In this document: positions 1,553-43,700 of the stretch, one piece after another
How positions within the stretch are numbered: position 1 is the first letter of the stretch
Layout of the letters: each line of letters begins with the position of its first letter
NCBI GenBank assembly: GCA_964634875.1
Contig: CAZWKA010000006.1
Coordinates: 12,173 to 76,172, forward strand
Origin: an uncultured Gammaproteobacteria bacterium
GTDB lineage: Bacteria; Patescibacteriota; Patescibacteriia; Magasanikbacterales; GWA2-37-8
Reading direction: 5' to 3'
DNA length: 64,000 nt
Notes under the pieces: model-generated
The model's database searches: none
What the model saw: only the letters and a program-made list of their open reading frames with translations
Told to the model about the DNA's origin: nothing
Translations under genes and position numbers: made by a program

Positions 1553-2933
1553 ACATGCGTTGTTTTAACGACTCAATCTCTTGTTTGAGTTTGAGATCGT
1601 TCTCGAGTTCGTTCTTGATTTTCTCGTGGGCATGCATCGCTGTGGTGTGGTCGCGGTTGCCAAGTCCTTCGCCAATCGCTGGATACGACATCTTGAGCTC
1701 CTCGCGCATGAGGTACATAATAATTTGGCGTGGAAAGGAAATCTTTTTCTCTCGGCTTTTACCGCGGAGGTCTTCGGTAGATATGTTGTAGACCTGGCTG
1801 ACCGTTTCAATCAGCTGGTCGGCGGTAAGCGAGCGGCGGGTAGACCCGGCTTCCAACCCAGATAAAAGCGACTTAATCGTTTCGGGGGTTGGTACCATGT
1901 TTTTGAGTTGATGGAAAACAATGATCTTGTTAAGGGCGCCCTCGAGTTCGCGAATGTTGCTCTGTACGACCGAAGCAATTGTTTGGATGATTTTTTGTTC
2001 TAGTATAAAAGATTTTTCAGCACATTTACGTTCTAAAATGGCTACACGGGTCTCAAAGTCAGGTGCTGAAACATCGGCGATCATTCCCCACTCAAAGCGC
2101 GACTTAAGACGGTCCTCGAGGGCAGGAATCGCTTTTGGCGGGCGGTCCGAGGTAATGACTACCTGTTTGTTTTGTTGGTGAAGCTCGTTAAAGGTATGAA
2201 AGAAAGATTCTTGAGTTCGGTCTTTGCCGGCAATGAACTGAATATCGTCAATGAGGAGCAGGTCGACGTGCCGGTAGCGGTTTTGGAAATCTTTGGCCGC
2301 ACCTTCTTTGATAGAAGAAATAAAGTCGTTAGAAAACTTTTCAGCACTGACGTACAGAATAACAATGCCTGGGTTTTTTTTAGTGAGTTCGTTGCCGATG
2401 GCTTGTAGTAAGTGTGTTTTACCAAGTCCTACTCCGCCGTAGATAAACAAAGGGTTATATGCGACACCAGGACGAGCAGCAACCGCCTGTGCGGCAGCGT
2501 ACGCAAGTTCGCTCCCCCCGCCCACTACAAAGTTATCGAAAGTATATTTAGGGTTGATAATAAACGCACCGCCTGTTTCGTTGTTGCCCTGGCGTTGTGC
2601 GGTTGGAGCTGTAAAAGGTAAGTTGTTAAACTCTGGGGGTTTGGGAACGGATTGAAAAACGACCGGTTGTTCAGTGATGTTTTTGATATTATCAATTTTG
2701 TATTCTAATTTTTTGATCGGCTTTTCTGTGATTCGTTCGAGCGACTTGATGACCGTCTGATGGTATTTTTTTTCAAGCCAGGCTTTGGTAAAGGCGTTTG
2801 GTACGCACAGGAGTACCTGCCCTTCTTGAACCGAGATGATGCCGGTGTTTTTGAACCAGGTAATGAAATTGGCTTTCGAGATGCTCAGTTCAAGCTCGGC
2901 GAGGACGGCCTGCCACAGTTCGCTGTTATTCAT
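1536..2933 (-). CDS. dnaA: Chromosomal replication initiator DnaA
   Basis: 465 aa; AAA+ Walker A GGVGLGKTHLL and a C-terminal DnaA DNA-binding region (..ISFPRQIIMYLMREELKMSYPAIGEGLG). Confidence 0.96.
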   Translation of the reverse strand: MNNSELWQAVLAELELSISKANFITWFKNTGIISVQEGQVLLCVPNAFTKAWLEKKYHQTVIKSLERITEKPIKKLEYKIDNIKNITEQPVVFQSVPKPPEFNNLPFTAPTAQRQGNNETGGAFIINPKYTFDNFVVGGGSELAYAAAQAVAARPGVAYNPLFIYGGVGLGKTHLLQAIGNELTKKNPGIVILYVSAEKFSNDFISSIKEGAAKDFQNRYRHVDLLLIDDIQFIAGKDRTQESFFHTFNELHQQNKQVVITSDRPPKAIPALEDRLKSRFEWGMIADVSAPDFETRVAILERKCAEKSFILEQKIIQTIASVVQSNIRELEGALNKIIVFHQLKNMVPTPETIKSLLSGLEAGSTRRSLTADQLIETVSQVYNISTEDLRGKSREKKISFPRQIIMYLMREELKMSYPAIGEGLGNRDHTTAMHAHEKIKNELENDLKLKQEIESLKQRMYVNNV

Positions 2934-3192
2934 AAAAAAGACGGTTTTTTAAGTAATTTTACCCATTCTAACACAAGGCTGGTTTTTAGGGAAAGGAAGC
3001 GTTTAAGGGGTGGTGGGGACAGACTGTTGATAACCTGTGGATAGATGTGACTAAACAATGAAACAGGGGGTTGTAAGCAGTTTTGGTGTACCCTTTCTAG
3101 GTATTGTTTCATTGTTTACCTAAAAAGGTTGACTAAATCAAAAAAAACTTGTATGCTAGGGGCGTTGCTTCCAGATTACCTTAATTTAAAAT
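2934..3192. promoter_or_regulatory. oriC part 1: divergent dnaA/rpmH intergenic region with DnaA boxes
   Basis: TGTTGATAA (rc TTATCAACA) at 3025-3033 and TGTGGATAG (rc CTATCCACA) at 3036-3044; classical rpmH<>dnaA arrangement. Confidence 0.55.
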
Positions 3193-3366
3193 ATGTCAAC
3201 GAAACGAACCTATCAACCAAAAAAGCGCAAACGCGCTAAAACCCACGGCTTCCGTGCCCGTATGGCGACTAAACAAGGCCGTACCGTACTTGCCCGTCGC
3301 CGCGCCCGTGGACGCAAAAAACTTACTGTGTCGGACGAAAAGAAAGGAAAACGCCTCCGCAAATAA
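3193..3366 (+). CDS. rpmH: 50S ribosomal protein L34 (below the ORF-track length cutoff)
   Basis: Translates [46 protein letters not shown].. matching the L34 consensus. Confidence 0.85.
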
Positions 3367-3390
3367 AAGGCGGCAGGTCTCCAAGGCACA

Positions 3391-3418
3391 ATCCGTCTCT
3401 AAAGACGGATTTTGTGTT
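3391..3418 (+). terminator. Hairpin plus T-rich attenuator/terminator between rpmH and rnpA
   Basis: atccgtct-ctaa-agacggat followed by ttttgtgtt. Confidence 0.4.
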
Positions 3419-3429
3419 ATAATCCCCAT

Positions 3430-3846
3430 ATGCTTCCTCTTGAAAACCGTCTCAAAAAAGTTCGCGACTTTAATTTGGTTACTAAATATGGCCGTTGGAT
3501 CAACGGCACATTTTTGGATTTAAAAGTTCTTGACCTGGAAAAAAACAAACAACAGGTGCCGGCCAAGGAAGATCTTGAAAGTTTTAAAAAGCAGCTAAAG
3601 TTAGCCTTTGCGGTGGGGTTAAAAATTTCTAAAAAGGCAGTGGTGCGTAATCGCCTTCGCCGCCAACTGCGCGAAGCTGTACGGCTCGCCTTTAAAGCCA
3701 GCCAGCCCGAACCAGGTTTTTTTGTCTTGGTAGTGGCAAAAAAAGAATCGCTCAACAGGGAGTATGGTGACCTTGAACGCGAAGTGACCGCCCTACTCCG
3801 ACGGGCTGGGCTCTGCAAAATGCCGCCCATGCCAAAGAGTAAATAG
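3430..3846 (+). CDS. rnpA: RNase P protein component
   Basis: RnpA-like basic protein (..RLRRQLREAVR..) directly after rpmH; the ORF-track start at 3412 is TTG, first ATG is at 3430. Confidence 0.85.
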   Translation: MLPLENRLKKVRDFNLVTKYGRWINGTFLDLKVLDLEKNKQQVPAKEDLESFKKQLKLAFAVGLKISKKAVVRNRLRRQLREAVRLAFKASQPEPGFFVLVVAKKESLNREYGDLEREVTALLRRAGLCKMPPMPKSK

Positions 3847-3856
3847 CGTTTTTTGT

Positions 3857-4138
3857 ATGGAAGCTCAGCCAAAAAAGACAACTATTTTCCGCCTTGTTTT
3901 TTTAATGCCCCGCTACTGCTTAATGTTTATTATTAAGCTGTACCAACTCACCTTTTCGCCCGATCACGGGCTCTTCAAACATCGTTTTCCGAATGGTTAT
4001 TGCCCTTTTTATCCTTCGTGCAGCTCCTATGCATATCAAACAATCGAAAAAAACGGCGCCATACGAGGCTCGCTCAAGAGTGTGTGGCGTATCGTACGGT
4101 GTCATCCGTGGACCCGGGGCGGAGTTGATATGCCCTAA
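3857..4138 (+). CDS. yidD: Membrane protein insertion efficiency factor YidD
   Basis: Contains CPFYPSCSSYAY....RCHPW.RGG.D.P, the YidD/DUF37 signature. Confidence 0.85.
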   Translation: MEAQPKKTTIFRLVFLMPRYCLMFIIKLYQLTFSPDHGLFKHRFPNGYCPFYPSCSSYAYQTIEKNGAIRGSLKSVWRIVRCHPWTRGGVDMP

Positions 4139-11004: not shown

Positions 11005-13710
11005 ATGTCTAAATTTGTCCTCGTCGATGGTAATGCCATCGTTCACCGTGCGTATCACGCCATTCCACCTTTGACTACCAAGGAGGGTGTTTTAGTAAAT
11101 GCCGTCTACGGCTTCGTTTCCATGCTCTTAAAAGTTTGGAAAGATCTCAAGCCAGAATACCTGGCTGTAACGTTTGACGTGGCGGGTGGCACATTCCGAC
11201 ATGACAAGTTTGAAAAATATAAAGCGACTCGCGTCAAAGCCGACCAAGACCTCTACGACCAAATTCCACTCGTTCACCAAGTGGTCGAAGTCTTTGGTAT
11301 CCCTATTTTTGAAAAAAAGGGTTTCGAAGCTGACGATGTGATCGGTACGATCGCTACCCAATGCTTGGCTGAAACTAATAAAAAAACGGAAGTATATATT
11401 GTTACCGGGGATATGGATACGCTGCAGCTCGTGAACGAGCAGGTAAAAGTGTACACACTCAGGAAGGGATTAAACGATATTGTGGTTTACGACCCGGCCG
11501 AAGTCCGGTCCCGTTATGGCTTTGGTCCAGAAATGATTGTTGATTACAAGGCGCTGCGCGGCGACACCTCTGACAACATTTCGGGCGTTCCAGGTATTGG
11601 TGAAAAAACTGCCACTGAACTTATCCAAAAAATTGGCGGGATCCAGGAAATTTATCATGAACTAGGAAATCAAAAATCATCGATTTTTACCGACTTTAAA
11701 CCGGGTGTGATCAAAAAATTACAAGAAGGACAGGCAGCGGCGGATATGAGCCGCTATCTCGCGACGATTGATCTGGCCGTCCCGGATCTGGGTTTCACGC
11801 TGGAAACGTGTCGTATCAAACCATTTGATAAAGAAAAAATAATTGCCTTGTTCCAAAAGTTTGAATTCATTTCACTCCTTAAGCGGCTGCCTGATTTTGC
11901 GGGCAATCCAGCTGTGACCGAAGAAAAAAAAGCTACCCGTCCGTCTGCGCCGCGGGCAAAACAAACCAGGTCGCTCGAGTATGTTGAAGTCGCAACAGTC
12001 GCTGAGGTGCAAAATTTGGCTGATCACATCAAACAGCATGGTAGTTTTGCTGCGCGGTTGGTAACGAACGGTAATGACTTGTTTAGTGCCACGCTTAGCG
12101 GCGCCTTGTTTGTCGTTGAGCACCACGGTTACTTTGTCCCGCAGCGTCTCTTTAAAAATATCCAACACGTTTTTGCAGATCCCGTACTAACCCTTAACGG
12201 CCACGACCTTAAGCAGTTACTAAAAGTGGCCAGTGTCCATAAAATTGAGATTAAAAATAAGCTGTTTGACGTGATGGTCGCGTCGTATCTTTTGAACCCG
12301 GGCAGCCGCGCTCACGATCCGGCAAGCGTTGTCCTTAAAGTACTCGGAAAAGAATTGTTGGTCGGCGGTGGGCAAGAAAGCCTGTTCGGCGCTGATACCA
12401 AAACGTTGGCGCACGAATTATTTTTACTCAGCGAAACCGTGCCCGAATTAACCCGTGAGCTCAAAGCAATCGACGATTATGGATTGATTGAAAAAATCGA
12501 AATGCCTCTCAGCATTGTTCTTGCTGAAATGGAACTGAATGGTGTTGCTGTTGACCCTGCGAGGCTCGTGGAACTTTCCAAAAAAACAGCGAAAGCACTC
12601 GCTGCTTGCACCAAGAAAATTTACGCTCTCAGTGGTGAAGAGTTTAATATCGCTTCCCCCATCCAGCTGCGTGAAGTTTTGTTTGAGAAAATGAACATTC
12701 CGGTCGAAGGTATAAAAAAAGGAAAAACCGGGTTGTCAACATCCGCTGAGGAGCTTGAAAAACTGCGCGACCTCCATCCAATCATCAACGAGATCTCGGA
12801 ATTTCGCGAGCTTAGTAAGCTGCAAAACACCTATATTGATGTTCTACCAACCCTGGTAAATCCCACCACCCACCGTATTCATACGACGTACAACCAAGCT
12901 GTTGCTGCGACCGGCCGCCTGTCGAGTACTGACCCTAATTTACAAAACATTCCTGTCCGTACTGAGTTGGGGCGTGAAGTGCGTACTGCTTTTGTTGCCG
13001 AAAAAGGAAATATTCTTCTGAGTGCAGACTATTCCCAGATTGAGCTGCGTATCGTGGCATCGCTGGCCGAGGATCAGCGTATGATCGACATTTTTTCGGA
13101 AGGTCTCGACATCCATCAGGCAACCGCCGCTGCCATCAACAATGTGCCGCTTGAGAATGTTACCCGTGAAATGCGCTACGCTGCCAAAGAAGTTAACTTT
13201 GGGGTGTTGTACGGTATGGGCACGCACGGCTTGTCGTGGCGAGCCGGTATCCCCTACTTGCAAGCTAAAGAATTTATTGAAAAATACTTTGAACAATTCA
13301 GTGGGGTCAAGAAATATTTGGACCGCACGATTGCATTTGCCGCTAAGGACGGGTATTGCGAAACGCTTTTTGGTCGGCGCCGGTATATTCCCGAATTGGG
13401 TAGTAAAAATCACCAATTACGTGCGGCTGGTGAACGCATGGCTGTAAACCATCCCGTACAAGGTACGGCCGCCGACCTGATGAAAATGGGTATGATCGAC
13501 GTGTATAAAAAACTACATGCCTCAAAATTTGGTGCTGATGTAAAAATGATCCTTCAGGTGCACGACGAATTAGTCGTCGAAGTAGCAAAAGGATTAGAGA
13601 AAGATGTGGGCGCGCTCCTTAAGGCGACGCTCGAGAACGTCGTCAAGCTCAGGGTGCCTGTAAAAGTAGATCTTAAGACTGGGCAAAATTGGGGCGAAAT
13701 GGAGAAATAA
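11005..13710 (+). CDS. polA: DNA polymerase I
   Basis: 901 aa; 5'-3' exonuclease N-domain, and C-terminal polymerase motifs (..DYSQIELRI.., ..QVHDELV..). Confidence 0.96.
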   Translation: MSKFVLVDGNAIVHRAYHAIPPLTTKEGVLVNAVYGFVSMLLKVWKDLKPEYLAVTFDVAGGTFRHDKFEKYKATRVKADQDLYDQIPLVHQVVEVFGIPIFEKKGFEADDVIGTIATQCLAETNKKTEVYIVTGDMDTLQLVNEQVKVYTLRKGLNDIVVYDPAEVRSRYGFGPEMIVDYKALRGDTSDNISGVPGIGEKTATELIQKIGGIQEIYHELGNQKSSIFTDFKPGVIKKLQEGQAAADMSRYLATIDLAVPDLGFTLETCRIKPFDKEKIIALFQKFEFISLLKRLPDFAGNPAVTEEKKATRPSAPRAKQTRSLEYVEVATVAEVQNLADHIKQHGSFAARLVTNGNDLFSATLSGALFVVEHHGYFVPQRLFKNIQHVFADPVLTLNGHDLKQLLKVASVHKIEIKNKLFDVMVASYLLNPGSRAHDPASVVLKVLGKELLVGGGQESLFGADTKTLAHELFLLSETVPELTRELKAIDDYGLIEKIEMPLSIVLAEMELNGVAVDPARLVELSKKTAKALAACTKKIYALSGEEFNIASPIQLREVLFEKMNIPVEGIKKGKTGLSTSAEELEKLRDLHPIINEISEFRELSKLQNTYIDVLPTLVNPTTHRIHTTYNQAVAATGRLSSTDPNLQNIPVRTELGREVRTAFVAEKGNILLSADYSQIELRIVASLAEDQRMIDIFSEGLDIHQATAAAINNVPLENVTREMRYAAKEVNFGVLYGMGTHGLSWRAGIPYLQAKEFIEKYFEQFSGVKKYLDRTIAFAAKDGYCETLFGRRRYIPELGSKNHQLRAAGERMAVNHPVQGTAADLMKMGMIDVYKKLHASKFGADVKMILQVHDELVVEVAKGLEKDVGALLKATLENVVKLRVPVKVDLKTGQNWGEMEK

Positions 13711-13712
13711 AC

Positions 13713-13738
13713 CGCTAAAAAAGCGGTTTTTTCTTGTT
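13713..13738 (+). terminator. Intrinsic terminator after polA
   Basis: aaccgct-aaaaa-agcggtttttt. Confidence 0.6.
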
Positions 13739-13744
13739 TGTAGA

Positions 13745-13817
13745 CTTGACAAGTGGCTTGACAAGTTAATTTAATACTTGACAAGTGGCTTGACAAGTTA
13801 ATTTAATACTTGACAAG
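13745..13817. repeat. Array of five 9-bp palindromes CTTGACAAG in a 32-bp tandem repeat (putative operator array)
   Basis: Copies at 13745, 13757, 13777, 13789 and 13809; the last copy supplies the -35 TTGACA of the downstream promoter. Confidence 0.85.
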
Positions 13818-13838
13818 ATTCATTCTTTAGGATAATAT
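13810..13838 (+). promoter_or_regulatory. Near-consensus sigma70 promoter TTGACA-17-TAATAT
   Basis: TTGACA at 13810-15 and TAATAT at 13833-38, with the ATG at 13847. Confidence 0.6.
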
Positions 13839-13846
13839 AAAGACAT

Positions 13847-14890
13847 ATGAATCTTGAAGAACAGATTTTAAACAATATTAAAGAAAAAGGCTCTATTAGA
13901 GCTAAAGAAATAAGTCAACTGAGCGGTTTATCAAAACAGTCAGTTGTTGTGTCGCTGAAAAGGTTGATTGAAAGCAAGAAGATTGCTCGATTGGGCCAAA
14001 CTAACCATGTAAGATATGTTTTGTTTGATGATGCTGAGAGAATTACAAATGGCCCGGGTGAGAAGGTTTGGCATCGTCGAATAGAGAGGGTGGAAAATAA
14101 AAATGAATCAGCTGTTTTTGGAGAGCTTAAAGAATCTTTCTTTTTTAAACATGCAAGATTAAGTAAGGAGGTAACGAGAATTATTGAGCATGCTTTTACG
14201 GAAATGTTAAATAATGCAATAGAACATTCAGGCTCTGAGGTTATTGAGATTTGGGTTCGCGTAAATGAAAGAGCCTTCTCTTTTGAGATTGTTGATCGTG
14301 GTGTGGGTATCTTCAATAATATAAAACAAAAAAGAAAGCTAGAAAACGATGTTGAAGCTGCCCAAGATATCTTTAAGGGCAAGCAAACCACAATGCCCGC
14401 GACACACTCAGGTCAAGGTATTTTTTTCACCTCTAAAATGGCGGATAAATTCTGGATCATTAGTAACAAAACTGAAGTGCTTGTTGACAATACTATCCCA
14501 GATTTTTTTATTAAGCCGCACCGCCAACGCACAGGAACATTAGTGGGTTTTTTAATTGCTGTTTTGAGTCCTAAGAAGATTCAGGACGTTTTTAATCAGT
14601 TTACGGATGAAAATTTGCGATTTAATGAGACGAAATTTAATGTTAACCTCTATGCGATGGAAGACAGTTTCGTCTCCCGCTCCCAAGCCCGCCGCCTCTT
14701 GGCTGGACTCGATGAATTCAAACGCATTGTGCTTGATTTCAACCGTGTTGAATTTATCGGCCAAGGCTTTGCTGATGAAATTTTCCGGGTCTACAAAAAT
14801 TTCCATCCGGATGTGGAGATTACGTTTGTGAACACGACGCCCGAAGTGGAGGCGATGATTCGGCGTGCGATGGCTGAAGTTGAAAAATAA
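13847..14890 (+). CDS. wHTH - GHKL/HATPase (RsbW-like) - STAS (DUF4325-like) fusion regulator
   Basis: N-terminal wHTH (..ISQLSGLSKQSVVVSLKRLIESKKIARLG..); N-box EMLNNAIEHSG, DRGVGI, GQGIFF; C-terminal STAS-like region (..FNRVEFIGQGFADEIF..). Confidence 0.8.
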   Translation: MNLEEQILNNIKEKGSIRAKEISQLSGLSKQSVVVSLKRLIESKKIARLGQTNHVRYVLFDDAERITNGPGEKVWHRRIERVENKNESAVFGELKESFFFKHARLSKEVTRIIEHAFTEMLNNAIEHSGSEVIEIWVRVNERAFSFEIVDRGVGIFNNIKQKRKLENDVEAAQDIFKGKQTTMPATHSGQGIFFTSKMADKFWIISNKTEVLVDNTIPDFFIKPHRQRTGTLVGFLIAVLSPKKIQDVFNQFTDENLRFNETKFNVNLYAMEDSFVSRSQARRLLAGLDEFKRIVLDFNRVEFIGQGFADEIFRVYKNFHPDVEITFVNTTPEVEAMIRRAMAEVEK

Positions 14891-14905: not shown

Positions 14906-14935
14906 CCGTCCCAACAGCGGGGCGGTTTTTTATTT
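14906..14935. terminator. Bidirectional terminator
   Basis: aaaaaccgtccc-aacagc-ggggcggtttttt. Confidence 0.55.
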
Positions 14936-14974
14936 TCCTCACAACACAAAGAGTTGTAGTGTAGGGAAAGCGTG

Positions 14975-15010
14975 CCCGCGGGAACACAGGTTCCCGCGGG
15001 TGGGGGGGGG
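14975..15010 (-). repeat. GC hairpin plus G9 homopolymer (C9 in the sense of the downstream minus-strand gene)
   Basis: cccgcgggaac-acag-gttcccgcggg followed by g x9 at 15002-15010. Confidence 0.8.
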
Positions 15011-15031
15011 TAGATGTCTGCCGCGACGCGT

Positions 15032-15499
15032 TTAGTCGGGCTTGATCGTCGGGGGGTTGTGGTCGGTGACCACGATGGTGCAGTCGATGGGCGACTTCTT
15101 GGGATCGAGCAGTCGGCTTGTCCGCAGAGACCCCACGTTCGGCTCGTCCACGCCCATCGGGTCCCCGCACCGGAAGAGCTCGAAGGTGCTCTTCTTCCAG
15201 TCAGAGCCTGATCTGTCCGTCACGGGCGCGAAATAGAATTCGACCAACTGTCGGGCCGATTCCTGGACGCCGTAGTGCTCGACCGTGAACACCAGCTCCG
15301 TACCCGAGGCCTCGGTGTACTGCATGGCGACATCGGCAAAGTGGATGATCCGCCAGGGGTGCGGCGAGGTTGCGCTCAAAATGCCGAACGCGCTGGTCTT
15401 GGTTGAAGATCCTCGCTCGTCCAATTTGTTGGGCAGACCGCTGCTGCAACCAACAGTGAGTACGGCTGCAGCAAGACCAAATATCCGCAATTGTTTCAT
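15032..15499 (-). CDS. Predicted lipoprotein in high-GC island 2
   Basis: MKQLRIFGLAAAVLTVGCSS signal peptide with lipobox; the ORF-track start at 15544 lies upstream of the signal peptide. Confidence 0.55.
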   Translation of the reverse strand: MKQLRIFGLAAAVLTVGCSSGLPNKLDERGSSTKTSAFGILSATSPHPWRIIHFADVAMQYTEASGTELVFTVEHYGVQESARQLVEFYFAPVTDRSGSDWKKSTFELFRCGDPMGVDEPNVGSLRTSRLLDPKKSPIDCTIVVTDHNPPTIKPD

Positions 15500-15587
15500 C
15501 GTATTCTCCCCATGGCAAAGTGCCAGGCCAATACTGTCTAGCATGAAAAAGCCCGGTTGTCAACGGTAATTCAATAACAAAATTTTG

Positions 15588-15625
15588 CCTAAAGACTTGA
15601 CAAATAAGGGTGCGCAGGTAGGATG
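15588..15625 (+). promoter_or_regulatory. Putative promoter TTGACA-16-TAGGAT
   Basis: cTTGACAaataagggtgcgcaggTAGGAT, then an AAGGAG Shine-Dalgarno before the ATG at 15652. Confidence 0.4.
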
Positions 15626-15651
15626 GGTCAAACTATCACAAGGAGTCCGCC

Positions 15652-16089
15652 ATGAGAGCTTTATTTGCCGCTGCAGGTCTATTGGTTGCGTCCGGATGCA
15701 GTCTTGGTTGGGACTTTCTTTTCAGACAGAAGGAGGGCGTTGTCGATACTGAGCCTCTGCCCGCAGGTTCGCACGTCTATTGTACGGTCAAAGAAAATGC
15801 GGACGGAGGTAACCGCCCCTTCTTTATTAACAACGATCGGATCGCTTCTGGTCGGTGGCGGTACAGTGTTGAGGGCATGCTACTGTGTGAGTGTGAAGGT
15901 TGGCACCGTCTTAAGGTGTTTGCGTATGAGGACAGGCCGGTTGGCGAACGCAGCCGCATCGGCGACTATGTCTTCGTAGGCACCCGGAAACTTGAGGCAT
16001 TCAGTGTCGAGGTGCCGCCCGGCCTGAAGCCCGGCCAGTCATTCTGGCTCGAAGGCGAGTGTGTCGAAGACCTGCAGTCGACCAAATGA
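15652..16089 (+). CDS. Predicted lipoprotein in high-GC island 2
   Basis: MRALFAAAGLLVASGCS lipobox; AAGGAG Shine-Dalgarno. Confidence 0.55.
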   Translation: MRALFAAAGLLVASGCSLGWDFLFRQKEGVVDTEPLPAGSHVYCTVKENADGGNRPFFINNDRIASGRWRYSVEGMLLCECEGWHRLKVFAYEDRPVGERSRIGDYVFVGTRKLEAFSVEVPPGLKPGQSFWLEGECVEDLQSTK

Positions 16090-16099
16090 TTGATTAGAA

Positions 16100-16129
16100 A
16101 GCCGTCCGGTGATGCGACACCGGACGGCT
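16100..16129 (+). other. 12-bp perfect GC hairpin (HP1) in a 3' UTR
   Basis: agccgtccggtg-atgcga-caccggacggct. Confidence 0.8.
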
Positions 16130-16160
16130 ACCATCTCTCTACCCTTACAATTTTTTAAAT

Positions 16161-20358: not shown

Positions 20359-20542
20359 AGGTCAGTTTAGAAGTAAAAAATATTGAGAGCAATAGAACGA
20401 GTATAGCTGATGCGTGGCAAAACGTCAAGTTAGAGCCAAAAACCGTGTTCGCCTATTGACAAAACAGGCTTTTTCTGTTATGTACAAGATAAGAAAGTTC
20501 GCTTCCGTCCTGGATTCCCAACCACTTTTGTGAGGTCACGAA

Positions 20543-20905
20543 ATGAAACGTTCGCACGTCGCCCTCCTGGCCCTTTCTCTGCCTGCTTGCGTAGCCGGTC
20601 CTCTCTCGCTCCGCCCGGGCGTGGCGCCCGAGACCTGCTACCAGGCCAGCCAGCGCTTCGCCTGGGCGCCCGACTCCCGCAGGTGGGTCGCTTGCTTGCC
20701 GGACAATGGTGCGGTGACCAAACAGGGATACCGCCTGAAGATGGCCTTCGTCCCTGGCGACAACGGTTGTCGCCTCGAGGCTGCCCCGGACAACGGTCTT
20801 CACTCGCGGCTCTGGCCCAATGTTCCCACGGCTAACATCGATGACACCGGCGAGATGCCGTTCGCTGTCGATGGACAGCCCTACGTCTGCAAGATCGAGA
20901 ACTAG
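20543..20905 (+). CDS. Predicted lipoprotein in high-GC island 3
   Basis: MKRSHVALLALSLPACVAG lipobox; GAGG Shine-Dalgarno; promoter TTGACA-17-TATGTA at about 20454-20482. Confidence 0.55.
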   Translation: MKRSHVALLALSLPACVAGPLSLRPGVAPETCYQASQRFAWAPDSRRWVACLPDNGAVTKQGYRLKMAFVPGDNGCRLEAAPDNGLHSRLWPNVPTANIDDTGEMPFAVDGQPYVCKIEN

Positions 20906-20957
20906 CCCCCCCCACGACTCCTGGGTCAGCGCCGTTTTGGCTGCAGACCCAGGAGTT
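20906..20957 (+). repeat. C8 tract immediately after the stop codon, followed by an 11-bp-stem GC hairpin
   Basis: tag-cccccccc-acg-actcctgggtc...gacccaggagt. Confidence 0.8.
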
Positions 20958-21035
20958 GCTTTGTTTATGGAGGTAGCTTGACAAGACATCTTTTTTGCCG
21001 CTGTATAGGGGGTGCTTTTGAAAAGGAGTACCGCC

Positions 21036-21446
21036 ATGAAAGACAGTCGTTTACTCGGCAAAATTCTGTTCGTCCTCCTGTCTGCCTGTGCATCACAACC
21101 GCCGATCGTGTCTTCGCCTGTATCCAGCAGCCAACCCCAGGTGGAGCTTGCTTCAAACCAGTTGGTTGAGCCTCCAGATGGCTGTGCCGGTGATCGTGAG
21201 CGCCTTGGTACGTCGGTCGCTGGCGTGGGTACAATCTGTCGTTCCAGCCGGGATCAGTTCCCCCTCTTTATTAAGCTGACAGCCGAGGAAGATGGCTGCC
21301 GCCTTGTCACCAAGGTCTATCGCGGTGAAGAGGAGGTGCTTCATCTCAACACGCTGGCGAGCGAGATCGTGAAGAAGGGGTCGGCATACCATCTTTCAAC
21401 GAACCAAGAAAATTTTGTCTGCGAATCAGTGCGGTCGGAGGAATAA
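21036..21446 (+). CDS. Predicted lipoprotein in high-GC island 3
   Basis: MKDSRLLGKILFVLLSACAS lipobox; AAGGAG Shine-Dalgarno; a sixth CTTGACAAG copy at 20977-85 forms its -35. Confidence 0.55.
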   Translation: MKDSRLLGKILFVLLSACASQPPIVSSPVSSSQPQVELASNQLVEPPDGCAGDRERLGTSVAGVGTICRSSRDQFPLFIKLTAEEDGCRLVTKVYRGEEEVLHLNTLASEIVKKGSAYHLSTNQENFVCESVRSEE

Positions 21447-21553
21447 AAAATTCAGAGCCCACCACCTTGTTTTCTTGGTGTGCCTCAAGGCTCCGGACGA
21501 GCAGCGTATACTGCGCAGCCCCGGAGCCTTTTCATTTGTATTTGTTGTGGTCG

Positions 21554-36857: not shown

Positions 36858-37790
36858 ATGCGTGCATTTTTTTTAAAAATTATCGGAATCAGCTTCCTTC
36901 TTGGAGGTTTTGTTGTGCAAGAAGCGCAGGCGCTTTCACTCAGCCCGTCCCGAGGGGTTATTACGGTTGACCCAGGTGTGACCGGCGACGTGGTTGTCAA
37001 CTTTACGAATGATGAGGAGGCAAAAGTAATTTTGCAATTAGGTGTTACGGGCCTTAAGCAGGATCAAGCCGGTCGGCCTATTTTTGGGGCAGGTTTTGAC
37101 GCTGCCGAATCTTGGGTTGTGCCGGAAAAGAGCGATATTGAACTTGGCCCGGGCGAACGACAAGCTATAATTTTTAAAGTAACTGTCCCTCCCGGTGCCA
37201 CACCTGGCTCACATTGGGTAGCCTTGGCTGCCGAAACCCGTCCAGGAGTTGGCGGGAGTGCTGTTGTGAACAGTCGCTTAGTAAGCCTTTTGGCAATCCA
37301 AGTTGCTGGTGTGGTGACGGAAGACCTTTCCCTCGACGCCAAACTTGAGGAGCATGTTGCTGTTGGTGGCGAAACTTTGCCGCTCTCTGTGCAGTTGCTT
37401 AATAATGGCAATATTGAAGTACCGCTTGTCGGTAAAGTAACTTTCCGTTCACTGTCTGGTCGGGAACTAAAAACCACTCCATTTATTGTCGGCAATCAAT
37501 TACTGCCTCAGGCTGAACGTACGGTTGAATATGCTGTCGTCGCGGGTAGGAATAAACAGTGTGCTGCAGAATCGAACACGTCTCTTTGTGCTGAGCTGTT
37601 TTGGCCAGGTTTGTATAAAATGACCACGAGCATTACCTATGGAAAAACTCAGCAAGTAGTGGTGGGCGAAGAATCTTTTTGGTATCTGCCACTCTGGAGT
37701 TTGGGTGGCGGCATTGTTCTTGTTGGGCTTGTTGTCTTTAGTGTCCGTAAGGTGCGCCGTCGTAGCATGTTTCAAAAGTATGTTTCGTAA
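36858..37790 (+). CDS. CscA/DUF916-DUF3324-like cell-surface protein with a C-terminal TM anchor and basic tail
   Basis: Signal peptide, beta-rich ectodomain, C-terminal ..LGGGIVLVGLVVFSVRKVRRRS. Confidence 0.55.
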   Translation: MRAFFLKIIGISFLLGGFVVQEAQALSLSPSRGVITVDPGVTGDVVVNFTNDEEAKVILQLGVTGLKQDQAGRPIFGAGFDAAESWVVPEKSDIELGPGERQAIIFKVTVPPGATPGSHWVALAAETRPGVGGSAVVNSRLVSLLAIQVAGVVTEDLSLDAKLEEHVAVGGETLPLSVQLLNNGNIEVPLVGKVTFRSLSGRELKTTPFIVGNQLLPQAERTVEYAVVAGRNKQCAAESNTSLCAELFWPGLYKMTTSITYGKTQQVVVGEESFWYLPLWSLGGGIVLVGLVVFSVRKVRRRSMFQKYVS

Positions 37791-40749
37791 ATTTTTAAGT
37801 TTTATCCTCATCTGTAGTTTGTTCGCCACCGGCGCAATTTTTCAGGTTGCTCAGGCTCAGACTGATACTGAGGGTATTACTGTTGGTGCAACTGTACCTG
37901 CTGCGCCAACAGACGGCGGGGGCGGGGGCGGTGGAGGAGGTGGAGGAGGTACGACCGACCCTACACCAACCCCAGAGCCGGTCGACACTGCTCCGGTTAT
38001 TACCAATGTTGTCTCAGTCCCTGATTTTAGGGATGCGCTCATAAGTTGGTCGGCTACGGATGACAAGGGTATCAGCATGAGTTCGTTTGTGTATGGTACA
38101 ACCATGGCCTACGGCAGTGCCGGCAGTATTACAGGTACATACCAAGTGATGTTATCGGGTCTCGCTACTGACACGCTTTATTTTTTTAAAATCACTGTTA
38201 CCGATACAGGTAATCATACTACTGAATCAACCGGTTCTTTCAAAACTAAATCAGAAACCGACACGAGCGCCCCTACGATTAGCAATGTTCAAGTCGTCAG
38301 CGGAGTAACGAGCGCCACAATTACTTGGGATACCAATGAAGTTTCCGACAGCCAAGTGCAATACGGCACCACAGCTGCTTACGGAAGCCGTGCGACCGAC
38401 ACCAACGCAGTCACGGCACACAGTGTGGTAATCCTTGGTCTTGATCCTAATACGACATACCACTTTCGGGTGATCTCAACCGATGCAAACGGTAATAGTG
38501 GTTCGAGTACTGACGATACCTTTAAAACGCTTAAAAAAACAGTTCCTCCGCCTGATGTCAGTAATGTAAGTGTTGCGCCAGTTAACGAAGCGCTGGTCGT
38601 GCGCTGGGAAAACCCGGGCGACATCGCTGCCCCTGATTTTGCTGGCGTCAGGATTATTCGTAAAATTGGCAGCCGCCCCGTGAATTTGGCAGATGGTGTC
38701 GAAGTCTACCGTGGCAGTGGGCAAATGTTTACGGATAACGGTGTCACGACTAACGTGCGCTATTTTTACACGCTTTTTTCTTTTGATACATCAGATAATT
38801 TTAGTGCTGGTGTTTTTGGGGATGGTGAGGTACCGGCCCGGCCTGGTCAAGAAGTCTGTGATAATGGACAAGATGATGATGCTAATGGGCAAGTTGATTG
38901 TGCTGACGCCACGTGTTCACTGGCGACTGCCTGTGTTGCTCCCCCAACCCCGGGTGAGCCGACGACACCAACAACTACCCCAAGCGAGCCCGGCACTGAG
39001 CCTCCAGTTGTTGTCCCGTCGTCCACTGTTCCGGTTTTTTTGAAAATTGGTTTAGAAACGTTGCGTTTTTCGGCTGCCAGCCGCACTCTCGTGCTTGAGC
39101 GAAAGAACGAGTACATATCTAATTTGGCTGGTTTTAACTTCACGGTGTCGCTCCCAAGAAACGTTTTATCGAAAGATCCGGAAGGAATAACAGTAGTTGT
39201 TGATGGGAGCGATCAGCACCAAATGTCGTATAACCCAGCGGATGGTTTGTATTATACGGATTTTGTTTTTCCGCCAGCAGGGCCACATCAATCCTATCTT
39301 CAAATTGATTACGGTGCTGGTGAGATCGACACCGTACCGTTTATTTTAGACAGCCGTTCTATCGGGCACGTGTTTGGCGATAAAAATGTCCCCGTGCGTG
39401 GAGCCAAGATAACCTTGCTCCTCGAAAACGGCACACCTTTTTCACTGCAGCCGTACCAACAAAACAACCCGCTAACCACCGGCGAGGAAGGAGCATTTGG
39501 TTGGGTGGTTCCCAACGGTCGGTATTATGCCAAAATCTCTGCTGCGGGGCGGTATGACTATAGCGTACCGCTGCAAAATATTACTAATAATGTTTTTGCT
39601 TTGAACGTCACGCTCATTACTATACCACCGACCCTCGCAGAAGTGATTGATTTTAATAAGCCGCTCGGTGAAAACATTAAAAATGTCGGAAAAAACCTAG
39701 CTGCCAAAACACAGGCAGCAGCTCAGGTGCTGAATAATTTAACTAATAACCCACAGATCGAGAAAGCTGCTAGCGACATTATCGCTCCGACAGCTGTTGG
39801 TATTATCGCAGTGAGTGTCGCGCCGCTTATCTCCTGGCTTGACCTATTGCCGCTGCTCCGATTGGTTTTTTTGCAACCCGTCCTTCTTATCGGCCGCAAG
39901 AAACGCCAAGGTTGGGGGCAAGTGTATAACTCGCTCAGTAAGCTTCCAGTTGATTTGGCGATCATCCGTCTGGTTGATTTTAAGACGGGCAAAGTAGTGC
40001 AATCGCGTGTTACGGATAAAAACGGTCGCTACTATTTTACGGTCAACCCCGGTAACTATCGCTTAGAAGTTTTGAAAGAAAAGATGATTTTCCCTTCGGT
40101 TTTATTGCGCGGGTTTGCGACTGACGGCACCAAGGCTGATATTTACCATGGTGAACAGGTATCCATTAAAGAAAAGGATCCCATCATCACCGCTAACATT
40201 CCACTCGATCCGAGTGGTGATAATAAAACGCCGCGCCGGTTGGTGTGGGAAAAAATTGGTAAAAAAGTGCAGGTTATTTTGTCCTGGTTTGGTTTGGCCG
40301 TAACGGCTGTTTCGCTGTACATTTCACCTAAATGGTACGTTGCCGCCCTGTTGGTTGGACATGTGGCAATGTTTTTTATCTTCCGACGCCTGGCGTTGCC
40401 ACCCAAGCCCAAGAGTTGGGGTATTGTCTATGATGCCAAGACCAAAACACCGGTCACGCGCGCGGTGGCCCGACTATTTAGCTCACAGTTCAACAAGCTG
40501 GTTTCTACTCAGATTACTGATGCCCGTGGCCGTTATTATTTCCTGGCTGGGGATAATCGATATTATGTCACTTATGATCACAAAGAGTATGAGCCCGCTA
40601 AAACTAATTTAATTGATTTAAGTGGAAAGGAAGTCGCGACAATCGGTTCGAATGTAGGATTGGTTAAGAAAGGTTTGCAGTCAACGTCTCAGCAAAATAC
40701 AGAAAAACCTAATGATACTGTGTCTATGAAAAAATACACTAGTCCTTAA
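37780..40749 (+). CDS. Large surface protein: signal peptide, poly-Gly linker, FN3-like domains, carboxypeptidase-regulatory-like domains, C-terminal TM helices
   Basis: Start at the MFRKF ATG (11-nt overlap with the upstream gene); GGGGGGGGGGGG run; FN3-like ..TWDTNEVSDSQVQYGTTAAYG..YHFRV..; ..TDKNGRYYFTVNPGNYRLEV.. Confidence 0.75.
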   Translation: MFRKFLSFILICSLFATGAIFQVAQAQTDTEGITVGATVPAAPTDGGGGGGGGGGGGTTDPTPTPEPVDTAPVITNVVSVPDFRDALISWSATDDKGISMSSFVYGTTMAYGSAGSITGTYQVMLSGLATDTLYFFKITVTDTGNHTTESTGSFKTKSETDTSAPTISNVQVVSGVTSATITWDTNEVSDSQVQYGTTAAYGSRATDTNAVTAHSVVILGLDPNTTYHFRVISTDANGNSGSSTDDTFKTLKKTVPPPDVSNVSVAPVNEALVVRWENPGDIAAPDFAGVRIIRKIGSRPVNLADGVEVYRGSGQMFTDNGVTTNVRYFYTLFSFDTSDNFSAGVFGDGEVPARPGQEVCDNGQDDDANGQVDCADATCSLATACVAPPTPGEPTTPTTTPSEPGTEPPVVVPSSTVPVFLKIGLETLRFSAASRTLVLERKNEYISNLAGFNFTVSLPRNVLSKDPEGITVVVDGSDQHQMSYNPADGLYYTDFVFPPAGPHQSYLQIDYGAGEIDTVPFILDSRSIGHVFGDKNVPVRGAKITLLLENGTPFSLQPYQQNNPLTTGEEGAFGWVVPNGRYYAKISAAGRYDYSVPLQNITNNVFALNVTLITIPPTLAEVIDFNKPLGENIKNVGKNLAAKTQAAAQVLNNLTNNPQIEKAASDIIAPTAVGIIAVSVAPLISWLDLLPLLRLVFLQPVLLIGRKKRQGWGQVYNSLSKLPVDLAIIRLVDFKTGKVVQSRVTDKNGRYYFTVNPGNYRLEVLKEKMIFPSVLLRGFATDGTKADIYHGEQVSIKEKDPIITANIPLDPSGDNKTPRRLVWEKIGKKVQVILSWFGLAVTAVSLYISPKWYVAALLVGHVAMFFIFRRLALPPKPKSWGIVYDAKTKTPVTRAVARLFSSQFNKLVSTQITDARGRYYFLAGDNRYYVTYDHKEYEPAKTNLIDLSGKEVATIGSNVGLVKKGLQSTSQQNTEKPNDTVSMKKYTSP
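37918..37953 (+). repeat. GGN codon repeat encoding 12 consecutive Gly
   Basis: gacggcgggggcgggggcggtggaggaggtggaggaggt. Confidence 0.8.
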
Positions 40750-40754
40750 ACCAC

Positions 40755-43700
40755 ATGTTTCGTTTAAGACAAAAACATTTCAAGTCAAAACTTTTCCAAG
40801 CCCTTATGGGTCTCGGAGTGTTTTTGTTTTTTACAACCGCTTTCATTTTTTCTTACAGTCCAGCTGAGGCCGCTCCGACGGGTCCAAGCATTTTTACGTA
40901 CCAAGGCAAACTCTTAAGCAGTGCTAATGCGCCGATCAGTACGGCCGTCATGATGAAATTTGTTTTGTACGATTCGCTGACTGACGGTGCCGCTTTGTAT
41001 AGTGCTGCGGGGACACCGGGGGCACCAACCGCCGTAAGTATTACCCCCTCAAGCGGTATTTTCAGTGTTAATTTGGGTGGGACTGATACTAATCCAGTTG
41101 ATTCGGGTATTTTTAGAGATAATCCGGCTGTGTATCTGGAAGTTACGGTTGGTGCAGAAACTCTGACGCCGCGCAAACAGATTACAGCAAGCCCCTATGC
41201 CTTTAATGCTTTGTACCTCGATGGACAGAGTCTGGATACGAATTCGACCACTGCCTACATTCCACTCTCCGACGACCAAGGAAACTTTCGGTTTAATAAT
41301 ATAACTAGTACCGCCTTTTTCGTTACTGGTACAAGTACGTTAGCCACGACAACGATTAATAGTTCAACTATTACCAATGCAAATGTTACTAACCTCACGG
41401 TTAATGGCACCGTTTCATTTCTGAGTAATTCGTTGTCGGATGCCATGATTCCAGACACGATTACCGCGAGTAATTATTTGTTACTTGCTGGTGGTACCCT
41501 TGGTGGCGATCTGGCCTTTGGAGGCAATGATATCACGGGGCTCAATGATTTGAGTTTGAACGGCACCTTGACGAACAGTGGTCTAACACTGCTCGCGGGC
41601 GGTTTTATCGCCTCCGCTTCGTCAACCGTCAACGCCCAGCTCAATGTTCAAGGGCCGCTCAGCGCCTCTTCAACTCTTGTTGTAGCGGCCACTTCAACGT
41701 TCGCAACAGGGGTTGGTATCGCTACTTCGTCGCCGTTGGCTGCCCTTACTATCCAAGACGGTAGCATTTTAGCTGTCGGGAGCGCCGGTGGCACACCGTA
41801 CCAAGGGCCTGGTACACGACTAATGTGGGTTCCTAATAAAGCCGCTTTCAGAGCCGGATACGTTAATGGCTCACAGTGGGATGCTGCAAACATTGGTATT
41901 TACTCCACAGCATTCGGTGAAAATAATCAGGTGTCAGGTGACCGCGCGTTTGCGGGCGGTGCTGGCAATACTGTGAGTCAAACGGCCTCGGTTGCCTTTG
42001 GTGGTAGTAATACGGTAAGTGTTACTTATTCGGGCGCATTTGGTTTAAGTAATATAATTAACGGCGGCGGTGGCGGTTTCGCCTTTGGTATGAACAACAC
42101 GGTGAGTGGAGCGAGTTCTGCAATTGCCCTGGGTACAGGTAACAGTTCTGCTGGGGGCAGCGGTTCAACTGCTATTGGAAGTGCCAACAGCGCAGGTGGA
42201 ACAACAGCGATTGCTCTGGGTTCAAATATGTCGGTCAGTGGAAATAATTCAGTTGGTATCGGGCTTGATACAAATAATCGAACTCTGTCTCGAAACAATA
42301 CATTGGCGATTATGGGTGGCAATGTTGGTATTGGCACGTTGACCCCAGGTTATTTACTTTCGGTAAGCGGAACGCTGGCAGTCAGTGCTACCTCCACATT
42401 TGTCACTACAACTGCGGTGAGTTCTACAATTGAAACAGCTAATATCGCTTCGTTGTTTGCTAATACAGCAACAATTACCTCGCTCACTGTTACCAATTGT
42501 ACCGGGTGCGGTGGAGGGGTTTCGCTGGCTGCTAATCAGACTTTTACTGGTTTAAATACTTTTGCGGCAACCACAACGCTTGCAACTACTACGATTGGGG
42601 GAAGTCTTACTCCTTCAACCACTAACTTTTACGACTTAGGCACTTCTTCCACGCAGTGGAGATATTTAAATGTTTACGGAGGTGTTTTTCAGGCGGATGG
42701 TGTCACCACGTCTTCTTTAGAACAGCATCAACTCATTCTTGGTCAAGCTGTGGGGTATGATAAAGGTAAATTCTATATTGATGCCAGCGGCAATATTAGT
42801 GCTTCTGGCTCACTTCGGCTTGCCGGCAATGTTTTGCCATCTGCGCGGCCATCGTTTACAGTGACAGCGCGTACTACAAGTACGCTGAGTTCGGTTTTTG
42901 ATGCGGGTGGTGGAGGAGACAGAAATATTTCAATGGTAATTAATGCTGACGGTTTTCCTATAGTAGCTTTTACTGCCAATGCCAATGATTTACGGGTAGT
43001 AAAATGTGGAAACGCTGATTGCTCGGCAGGGAATATAGACACGGTTGTTGCTGTAAATGATGTAATCGGTCAGTCAAATTCTATGGCACTTGGATCCGAT
43101 GGCTTGCCAGTTATTGCGTATCAAGGCGCTGGCAGTGGAAGCGTGCACGTTATTCACTGTGGTAATTTGGCGTGTAGTAGTGGAAATACCACCACTGATG
43201 TTAACGGATCAAATCAAGGAACATACTTATCGTTGGCGATTGGTATTGATGGAATGCCTGGAATTGCTGTTTTTGACGTGAATAATGATGTTCGGTATAT
43301 CAAGTGTCTCAATTTGACCTGTTCGGCCAGTCAAGACAATCCAGTGGATGTTTCCGCAACTATTTCAACAGGTCATTATATTTCGTTGGCCATCGCCAAT
43401 AACGGTTATCCAATGATGGCATATTATAATCCAGATAAAACATCTTTGGACTACGCGCTTTGTGGCGATCCTGCTTGCAGCGATCGAGCCAAAATTACCA
43501 CAACTACAGTAGATAACACTGCTGACCAAGGGCAGTATGTTTCTTTGGCTGTTGGTTCAGATGGTCTTCCGGTTATGTCGTACCGCGACCCAACCTTTAA
43601 TCGTCTTATCGTGACGCGTTGCTTTAGCATGCTGTGCAATGGCGCAACAGATGGGGCAGTTTTGTCTAGTGGCGACTATGCAGGAGCAGGTATATACAGT

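Follow-up and report, generated by a model that had tools for sequence, protein, structure and literature searches.

The locus and its product

On the forward strand of the window, by which we mean the whole stretch of 64,000 nucleotides that was analysed, a gene at 13847..14890 (stop codon within this range) encodes a regulator of 347 aa; its neighbours are polA and lipoprotein/DoxX genes. The protein begins with a winged helix-turn-helix (aa 1-67; 13847..14047, forward strand) whose recognition helix reads S29-K-Q-S-V-V-V. It continues with an RsbW/SpoIIAB-like GHKL ATPase or kinase domain (aa about 100-240; 14144..14566, forward strand) and ends with a STAS-like domain, DUF4325 (aa 262-347; 14630..14887, forward strand). 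The initial annotation had proposed this fusion of winged helix, RsbW-like GHKL and STAS parts in one protein and had named HMM searches as a check. The GHKL and STAS parts proved significant in Pfam and above their cut-offs: HATPase_c_2 with E 7.5e-11 and 42.6 bits (cut-off 27.4), and PF14213 (DUF4325), at the C-terminus, with E 6.3e-13 and 48.7 bits (cut-off 23).

The GHKL domain has the Bergerat fold of RsbW and SpoIIAB, with conserved N box (E119, N123), G1 box (D150, G152, G154) and G2/lid (G189, G191). The C-terminal domain shares the STAS fold of the SpoIIAA and RsbV antagonists, and the N-terminal domain the winged fold of MarR/ArsR repressors. The flanking dimerisation helices of such repressors are lacking: a single short helix precedes the helix-turn-helix and the GHKL domain follows it. 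Nor do the sites described below match the 16-20-bp palindromic operator that their dimer binds, since each spans 9-11 bp and the units repeat directly every 11-12 or 20-22 bp. A structure model of the regulator reached a pTM of 0.60, with uncertain inter-domain geometry. NCBIfam gave sub-threshold matches only (anti-sigma F factor came first, with 19.6 bits where 135 are required), and a BFVD fold search gave no meaningful match over the full length. The literature on DUF4325 yielded mentions and no functional study, and a search for PF14213 and HATPase_c_2 with HTH found nothing relevant.

A single-sequence query against genome contigs returned three loci only. Relatives with the identical Pfam pair and a length of 335-355 aa number more than 7,200 scored matches, in 630 clusters (50% identity, E <= 1e-30). 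The fusion is not rare in databases; it defines a large family of uniform length, about 340 aa. Named matches come prominently from Patescibacteria/CPR and Omnitrophota, and prophages carry members of the family too.

Upstream of the gene lies an operator-like array (13744..13817, forward strand) of 2.3 copies, 100% identical, of the 32-bp unit ACTTGACAAGTGGCTTGACAAGTTAATTTAAT, a copy number that rests on one short-read assembly; an independent assembly of identical sequence (L006) breaks within the repeat. The array holds five CTTGACAAG sites, at 13745, 13757, 13777, 13789 and 13809, spaced 12/20/12/20 bp and all in one orientation. Each is a palindrome with 4-bp arms around a central A, which copies 1 and 3 extend with their flanks to ACTTG-A-CAAGT. 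With a further copy at 20977, the window has 6 matches to CTTGACAAG for an expectation of 0.56; in 100 shuffles the count always stayed below 6.

The suggestion that the last array copy doubles as the -35 of a TTGACA-17-TAATAT promoter was borne out by the promoter scan, in which this is the top promoter-like site of the region. In this sigma-70-type promoter (13810..13838, forward strand) the -35 TTGACA lies in the fifth operator copy and is perfect, the spacer is 17 nt, and the -10 TAATAT matches at 4/6 positions. Since the -10 ends 8 nt upstream of the ATG, the mRNA probably has no leader or almost none. Between polA and the array the terminator scan found an intrinsic terminator (13709..13729, forward strand; an 8-pair stem, then a T run), the stem of which is kept in the orthologues L001 and L004; it insulates the transcription unit of the regulator. 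A second one follows the gene (14906..14931, forward strand; CCGTCCC-AACAGC-GGGGCGG, then T6); it was read from the sequence, being absent from the terminator-like sites of the scan, and relatives carry a terminator at the equivalent place. With terminators on both flanks, the regulator is a self-contained, monocistronic regulatory unit. Rfam found four tRNAs only in the window, none close to this locus.

Conservation of the array and the motif

Three of the 9-mers and their 12/20 spacing are 100% conserved in the window, L001 and L004, while only 37-40% of the four-fold degenerate sites of the adjacent polA are identical in the same comparison. Because the sites are unchanged where nearby synonymous sites are saturated, the array appears to be under purifying selection. 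The promoter layout of the window recurs in the orthologues. The polA-regulator intergenic region, however, is 136 bp long in the window and 104 bp in L001 and L004. An extra 32-bp unit (13777..13808, forward strand), one of two identical units between which the choice of the extra one is arbitrary, has no counterpart in the orthologues. The five-copy state thus seems, from this alignment, to be a lineage-specific tandem duplication of one 32-bp unit that added two sites. Hence the five copies noted initially are present in the window, but as a design feature they did not survive, since orthologues have three.

We extended the comparison to 80 distant metagenomic relatives, among which promoter layout was scored in 75 loci and copy counts in 74. 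The motif TT[G/T]ACAA occurs 17.75 times per kb in the 150 bp that precede the gene and 0.48 times per kb in the rest of the metagenomic loci scored, an enrichment of about 37-fold. At least two copies lie upstream in 59 of 74 loci, against 2 of 220 control ORF upstream regions. In 60 of 75 loci a -10-like hexamer follows one of the copies at a distance of 16-18 nt, and 16 of those 60 have an inverted copy directly after the -10. Between neighbouring copies of one orientation the distance is 11 bp in 33 cases, 12 bp in 14 and 20-22 bp in 40; the members of inverted pairs, which lie on either side of the -10, are 33 bp apart (15 cases). The spacings indicate that the copies are phased with the DNA helix. 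The core of the motif is a generic -35 hexamer, and its promoter-proximal enrichment is partly the promoter itself; the upstream, inverted and TTTACAA copies go beyond such an explanation.

The combination of gene and repeated motif recurs in most of about 75 distant relatives, and the array pattern is also found in many prophage-borne relatives of 31-37% identity. Taken together, these comparisons identify the repeated motif as a cis element tied to the gene family across phyla. In one locus (L090) the middle site is flipped to CTTGTCAAG, which fits either a symmetric site or an unread central base. Residue 3 of the recognition helix (Ala-type or Gln) tracks motif base 8 (C or T), with counts of 21/4 against 5/26 (Fisher p = 4.6e-7, without correction for shared ancestry); the window clade combines an S-K-Q-S helix with G at base 8. 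The comparative data in this way yield a predicted specificity code.

The sixth copy, at 20977, had been taken as the -35 of a lipoprotein gene and as the hint of a small regulon. It is an exact 9-mer, but no -10 there passes the promoter scan. In the window TTGACA followed by A is the generic -35 form, and four other promoter-like sites there have CTTGACAA[A/G] in front of them. In the syntenic loci of L001, L002 and L004 the copy was not found, the S20-RmuC slot there holding unrelated small ORFs, and a second paired site was sought in the 64-kb window and none was found. A regulon through this single, non-conserved site with no convincing -10 was rejected.

Comparison with known switches

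For a long time modules of GHKL kinase and STAS domain were regarded purely as sigma-factor partner switches. In RsbW/RsbV and SpoIIAB/SpoIIAA they are separate proteins, whereas the regulator fuses such domains with a DNA-binding domain; it also differs from those systems in having no sigma factor gene nearby and no phosphorylatable Ser/Thr at the N-terminus of STAS helix alpha2. Its presumed output would be direct DNA binding, in contrast to the sigma sequestration of the RsbW type. Rv1364c of Mycobacterium tuberculosis is a fused RsbU-RsbW-RsbV, equipped with PAS and PP2C phosphatase domains and without a DNA-binding domain; it acts on a sigma factor, while the regulator would act on an operator.

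Canonical partner switching by phosphorylation, to which the initial annotation had likened the protein, is unlikely. Where SpoIIAA and RsbV have a phosphorylatable Ser/Thr at the N-terminus of helix alpha2, the regulator has, by structural position, G305-Q306-G307 (GQA in some relatives), invariant in the family and with no Ser/Thr within one residue on either side. The helix starts at Q306 in the predicted model, and the sequence of SpoIIAA and the position of its S58 (D-S-S-G) were checked against PDB 1auz/1tid; hhalign gave no significant match to SpoIIAA.

The closest characterised analogue is CapK/CapS, which is a different family. CapS is a STAS-wHTH repressor under the GHKL kinase CapK and binds a 4+1+4 'narrow palindrome', TTAAaTTAA, in its own promoter (Chambers et al., EMBO J 2026, PMC13373217). 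It binds cooperatively along the DNA at a site that overlaps the promoter, and its phospho-serine, S54, is absolutely conserved; CapK has the domain order HTH-STAS-GHKL, ssDNA is predicted to bind at its STAS-GHKL interface, and capK is always followed by capS and usually then by an immune operon (PMC13373217). The regulator combines an HTH, a STAS and an RsbW-like GHKL domain, as CapK/CapS does, and would control transcription with them, and the palindromic CapS sites resemble what looks like a conserved operator array over the -35 of the regulator. The differences are that CapK and CapS are two proteins where the regulator is one chain in the order wHTH-GHKL-STAS, that the regulator family has Gly-Gln-Gly in place of S54, and that capK adjoins capS while the regulator gene is solitary. 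Membership was rejected, since the sequence relationship is limited to the N and G1 boxes of the ATPase: hhalign of the family profile aligned 55 columns (these boxes) with CapK at a probability of 20.6%, against 0.1% for CapS, and neither CapK nor CapS has a DUF4325 or HATPase_c_2 match in Pfam. Judged from its sequence, the regulator appears to be a single-chain variant of GHKL/STAS transcription control.

Probable self-repression and its alternatives

Autoregulation through an operator overlapping the promoter had been proposed from the window; conservation of the array in orthologues, together with its enrichment and its place at the -35 across the family, strengthens that proposal. We regard it as fairly probable that the whole is best explained by a self-repressing single-chain switch acting on its own CTTGACAAG array. 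Co-occurrence and covariation point to the tandem CTTGACAAG sites as the probable target of the N-terminal winged helix. Sites about one, two and three helical turns apart would place several protomers on one face of the DNA. As the promoter-proximal site is the -35 hexamer itself, its occupation would be expected to exclude sigma-70 region 4 and so repress the regulator's own transcription. The extra 32-bp unit of the window would supply two more in-phase sites, probably for tighter cooperative binding, and under this operator model specific cooperative binding would depend on TTGACAAG.

Less certain is the signal-processing part, which may be formed by the tethered STAS-like domain and the GHKL domain, all ATP-binding motifs being kept. 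Judged by structural position, Gln stands in place of the acceptor serine; the STAS-like domain could then be a pseudo-substrate that cannot be phosphorylated and that alternates between docking on the ATPase and release from it. If docking and release follow nucleotide state or a ligand, they might alter oligomerisation or DNA affinity and lead to de-repression. A regulator acting on itself alone would be purposeless; the mechanism must include some further essential part.

That part might lie in trans. If the GHKL domain is an anti-sigma factor or serine kinase for an unlinked partner, the winged helix and operator would only keep the regulator's own level constant. We consider this possible and rather doubtful. 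RsbW-type genes normally stand in an operon with their partners. Among the 80 metagenomic loci, in contrast, neither a sigma factor nor a separate STAS antagonist gene is a conserved neighbour, and no neighbour family is common to more than 3; moreover, the fused STAS domain lacks the acceptor serine.

Another suggestion is that the sign of autoregulation is positive. OmpR/PhoB-type activators, winged-helix proteins too, classically act on tandem direct repeats phased at about 11 bp that run into the -35. The regulator would then recruit RNA polymerase from the phased repeats as PhoB does and form a bistable on-switch; the copies farther upstream have their centres near -53 and -65 (and in the window also near -84 and -96), and a -35 site can also serve activators, as in pho boxes. 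Unlike OmpR/PhoB, the regulator has no receiver domain, and its homology to them is limited to the wHTH fold. We think such activation unlikely. A perfect TTGACA, a 17-nt spacing and a -10 of 4/6 should need no activator, and this consensus hexamer, as opposed to a pho box, makes repression likelier than activation. In the largest clade the inverted copy right after the -10 lies over the transcription start, a repressor position, and the characterised analogue CapS is a repressor.

About equally improbable, in our estimate, is the idea that the family is a mobile module for sensing stress or phage, a single-chain counterpart of CapK/CapS that responds to ssDNA or another infection cue. The cue would lift repression of the module itself and of downstream genes, and the window copy would be a domesticated or orphaned one. 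In favour of it, IMG/VR viral contigs carry 56 relatives, at positions typical of accessory genes (the gap between phage transcriptional regulator and small terminase, beside an integrase, or after a tail module), in some metagenomic loci the whole operator-promoter unit occurs a second time, either immediately behind the stop codon of the regulator or before a neighbouring gene, and CapK offers the precedent of a predicted ssDNA site at the STAS-GHKL interface. On the other side, the window clade keeps the gene in stable synteny between polA and DoxX, in lineages whose versions of the protein diverge at 24-33% of residues. Conserved cargo genes downstream are absent, neighbours on viral contigs being common only to closely related prophages, and CapK/CapS is not detectably the same family. 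There was no match by tblastn in PLSDB plasmids and GenBank phages, nor by blastn of a prophage-borne relative in E. coli genomes. A known defence system was rejected for want of a PADLOC match (in PADLOC-DB 2.0 the best hits were to the wHTH only, with E of at least 0.0012), and a link to defence is speculative.

Least of all do we believe that the repeats are tandem or decoy -35 elements, or sites of another global factor, placed upstream incidentally: TTGACA is the sigma-70 -35 consensus, TTGACAA is a common -35 form in the window and all window copies share one orientation, but the array tracks the gene family across phyla and into prophages (controls, 2/220), some copies are TTTACAA variants or stand inverted beyond the -10, the motif covaries with the family's recognition helix, and a correctly spaced -10 accompanies a single copy in each array.

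If self-repression is the right reading, several consequences can be suggested. CapK/CapS made clear in 2026 that GHKL/STAS modules can drive a DNA-binding repressor directly; the present family would do the same job in a single chain without a phospho-serine, on a putative operator conserved across phyla. A bolder version, to which we attach little probability, makes the regulator the founding example of a widespread class of one-protein switches. Their operator would be the -35 hexamer with a 3' extension (TTGACAA-N-TT), where the protein would compete head-on with sigma-70 region 4, and their ATPase would be latched by the STAS pseudo-substrate, releasing the DNA on an intracellular cue. 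If true, energy charge might serve as the cue, or, as with CapK, ssDNA; and if other TTGACAA-type promoters were occupied as well, or sigma captured, the protein would be a global brake on promoter occupancy, not a local regulator. Should the signal be nucleotide state or ssDNA, the family would offer a minimal model of how partner-switch modules are rewired into one-component regulators. In Patescibacteria/CPR and Omnitrophota regulation is almost unknown, yet the family is common there, and its members in prophages of cultured bacteria may allow genetics.

A putative operator array shared across a protein family

The sequence CTTGACAAG occurs six times in the window against 0.56 expected, a count reached in no shuffle. 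Five copies (13745, 13757, 13777, 13789 and 13809) precede the regulator gene and one stands alone at 20977. The five form an exact 32-bp unit present in 2.3 copies; motif count and repeat scan agree with the initial annotation, which had described five palindromic copies in a 32-bp tandem pattern. It had also let the last copy double as a -35, and the promoter scan indeed ranks TTGACA-17-TAATAT, whose -35 sits within that copy, as the best promoter-like site of the region. The -10 ends 8 nt 5' of the ATG (13833-13849, + strand).

The nearest orthologues, P0002 (76% identity) and P0003 (73%), are syntenic with the window locus (polA, regulator, DoxX, NDH-2, holA, hypothetical, S20, small ORF, RmuC). 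Between polA and the regulator they have 104 bp, compared with 136 bp in the window, and this spacer holds three copies of CTTGACAAG, spaced by 12 and 20 bp as in the window, the final copy again doubling as the -35. Judging by spacer lengths and copy numbers, the window has gained one exact 32-bp unit by a recent, lineage-specific duplication. Such expansion recurs, since the whole operator-promoter unit is tandemly duplicated upstream in several family loci. The window and the orthologue lineages share identical versions of the three 9-mers and of the spacer TTAATTTA while four-fold degenerate sites of the adjacent polA are saturated (just 37-40% identity), so the array is under purifying selection. 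L090, the locus of a relative with 67% identity, has its middle site inverted to CTTGTCAAG, as would fit a symmetric site. The same locus has a ~125-nt insertion (1290-1435) with terminal inverted repeats GTAACTATTCAGTT...AACTGAATAGTTAC, separating operator-promoter from start codon; it resembles a miniature mobile element, or else a structured leader.

The association extends to distant relatives. We inspected the upstream regions of 80 metagenomic loci whose family proteins have 36-43% identity. TT[G/T]ACAA has a density of 17.75/kb in the 150 bp 5' of the family gene and 0.48/kb elsewhere in the loci; at least two copies precede 59 of 74 family genes, compared with 2 of 220 control ORFs. 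The distance between adjacent copies of like orientation is 11 bp in 33 cases, 12 bp in 14 and 20-22 bp in 40, and between inverted pairs it is 33 bp in 15 cases; each of these values approximates a whole number of helical turns. A -10-like hexamer lies 16-18 nt 3' of a copy in 60 of 75 loci, and 16 of those 60 promoters have an inverted copy directly 3' of the -10. Of the 60 promoters where a -10 was detectable, 21 have it ending 6-11 nt 5' of the start codon, which suggests that leaderless mRNAs are common across the family and that the regulator is translated without a leader in many lineages.

Could these copies simply be generic -35 elements? These would leave bases outside TTGACA unconstrained, would not favour TTTACAA copies and would not put inverted copies 3' of the -10. 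What is found is a motif that varies with the recognition helix. Helices of the type S-R-A-Y-[IV]-N-R-F go with GTTGACAACTT, as two direct copies with an inverted one past the -10; S-R-Q-Y goes with [T/G]GTT[G/T]ACAATT in direct repeats only; S-K-Q-S-V-V-V, in the clade of the window, goes with CTTGACAAGT. Helix residue 3 (Ala-type vs Gln) is associated with motif base 8 (C vs T; 21/4 vs 5/26, Fisher p = 4.6e-7, with shared ancestry uncorrected). Copies within one array are all of one variant, as would be expected if a single protein reads them all. Comparison shows the array as a cis element that is tied to the family, helically phased and overlapping the -35.

The regulator and its switch module

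The ORF at 13847..14890 (+ strand) encodes 347 aa. Pfam places HATPase_c_2 at aa 100-204 (E 7.5e-11) and the STAS-like DUF4325 at aa 280-334 (E 6.3e-13), both over the curated cut-offs, with weak MarR_2/HTH_24 matches at aa 5-45. An AlphaFold2 model, with 40 family members as input, has a mean pLDDT of 82.3 and a pTM of 0.60, the linker at aa 240-275 being of low confidence. Modelled alone, aa 262-347 (pLDDT 84.3) match the STAS domains of SLC26A11 (8.4), RsbV (8.0), and RsbR, RsbS and SpoIIAA (7.0-7.6). Because Pfam and this structural match agree, the three-domain reading (wHTH, GHKL ATPase, STAS) is correct. Terminators on both sides, that of polA found by the scan and the regulator's own at 14906-14931 read by eye from the sequence and absent from the scan list, make the gene monocistronic.

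Of 8,000 candidates that were scored, over 7,200 reach E <= 0.001, and at the stricter E <= 1e-30 an exhaustive search gave 630 clusters (50% identity). The top matches listed are ~340-350 aa each, with DUF4325 and HATPase_c_2 in common; the regulator is a member of a large family, uniform in length. Source names among the best matches include Parcubacteria, Wolfebacteria, Kerfeldbacteria, CPR2, Omnitrophota, Spirochaetales and Syntrophorhabdus, the named ones being mostly Patescibacteria/CPR and Omnitrophota.

The ATP-binding residues of the N box (E119, N123), G1 box (D150, G152, G154) and lid/G2 (H187, G189, G191) are invariant or near-invariant in 40 members. In canonical STAS antagonists helix alpha2 carries a phospho-serine at its N-terminus, which for SpoIIAA is S58 of D-S-S-G (sequence checked against 1auz/1tid). 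In the model of the regulator's STAS domain alpha2 begins at Q306, and G305-Q306-G307 is invariant among the 40 members, without Ser or Thr within one residue. Profile alignments of the family with SpoIIAA are not significant, so the absence of a phospho-serine is argued from the position in the structure. This points to a pseudo-substrate-like STAS domain that cannot be phosphorylated and is tethered to the kinase-like partner by the low-confidence linker. The proposed partner-switch-like fusion stands in its domain set; classical, phosphorylation-based partner switching is unlikely.

Proposed control and known systems

Autoregulation, as first proposed, is favoured by the family-wide motif association, phasing, -35 overlap, helix covariation and conservation in orthologues. 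The wHTH would bind the array, presumably cooperatively, and occupancy would block sigma-70 at an otherwise strong promoter, giving negative autoregulation that the extra 32-bp unit of the window may strengthen. With less confidence, we suggest that the pseudo-substrate STAS domain docks on the GHKL domain in an ATP-dependent manner and thereby sets the DNA-binding state. Beyond regulating itself, the protein could act on trans targets or a sigma factor, or serve a phage-related role. The comparative data make this control directly testable.

Rv1364c is a precedent for a kinase-STAS fusion, but lacks a DNA-binding domain. Among characterised systems CapK/CapS comes closest. There, ssDNA activates CapK (HTH-STAS-GHKL), which phosphorylates S54 of CapS (STAS-wHTH), a repressor that binds both a 4+1+4 narrow palindrome at its own promoter and a wide palindrome ahead of the immune operon that follows (PMC13373217). 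The logic is similar. However, the family has one chain instead of two proteins, a different domain order, no CapS-type phospho-serine and neither partner gene nor cargo operon; outside the ATPase N/G1 boxes its sequence is unrelated to either protein. We found no characterisation of a DUF4325 protein with wHTH-GHKL-STAS architecture in the literature. The family is a new, widespread and uncharacterised single-chain variant of GHKL/STAS transcription control.

The sixth copy and the surroundings of the gene

A small regulon had been proposed, with the copy at 20977 linking the regulator to high-GC lipoprotein genes. This link is unsupported. No -10 for that copy passes the promoter scan, the window has no second paired CTTGACAAG-type site, and the relatives' syntenic loci have no CTTGACAAG outside the array. 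The copy also fits the generic form, TTGACA then A being usual for -35 elements in the window, where CTTGACAA[A/G] lies 5' of four other promoter-like sites.

The genes concerned lie in higher-GC islands at 14950-16150 (56.5%) and 20450-21450 (58.1%; window 47.7%), with small lipoprotein-like ORFs at 15032..15544 (-) and 15652..16089 (+) in the first and 20543..20905 (+) and 21036..21446 (+) in the second. The first is a ~1.25-kb insertion relative to L001 and L004, the orthologue loci, whose regulator-DoxX interval holds just one bidirectional terminator. The second occupies the S20-RmuC slot, where relatives carry unrelated small ORFs. Both look like variable slots for putative secreted or surface proteins.

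The regulator gene is solitary, since no family of flanking genes is common to more than 3 of the 80 metagenomic loci, and PADLOC defence-system models do not match the regulator. A second complete operator-promoter unit lies just 3' of the regulator stop in L013, L025, L036, L038 and L039. Two direct copies, a -10 and an inverted copy are found at L013 3180-3250, L025 4156-4230, L036 4032-4100 and L039 4021-4100, and the next 100-300 bp in these four have no obvious ORF. Such a unit could drive a small RNA, a small peptide or a locus-specific regulated gene. In L031 the second unit is 5' of an upstream gene; the genes beside second units vary by locus.

No family homologue matched in PLSDB plasmids or GenBank phages; 56 relatives (31-43% identity) are on IMG/VR viral contigs, many with TT[G/T]ACAA repeats 5' of the gene. 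In Firmicutes-like prophages (L122-L129, L134, L139; ~2900-4000) the gene lies between a phrog_36 transcriptional regulator and the small/large terminase genes, in P2-like contigs (L102, L105, L107) it is 3' of the tail module, and in L094/L095 it adjoins an integrase. All three are accessory-gene positions. Elsewhere in the window, three successive very large ORFs (1014, 1752 and 1878 aa) occupy 37705-51731 (+).
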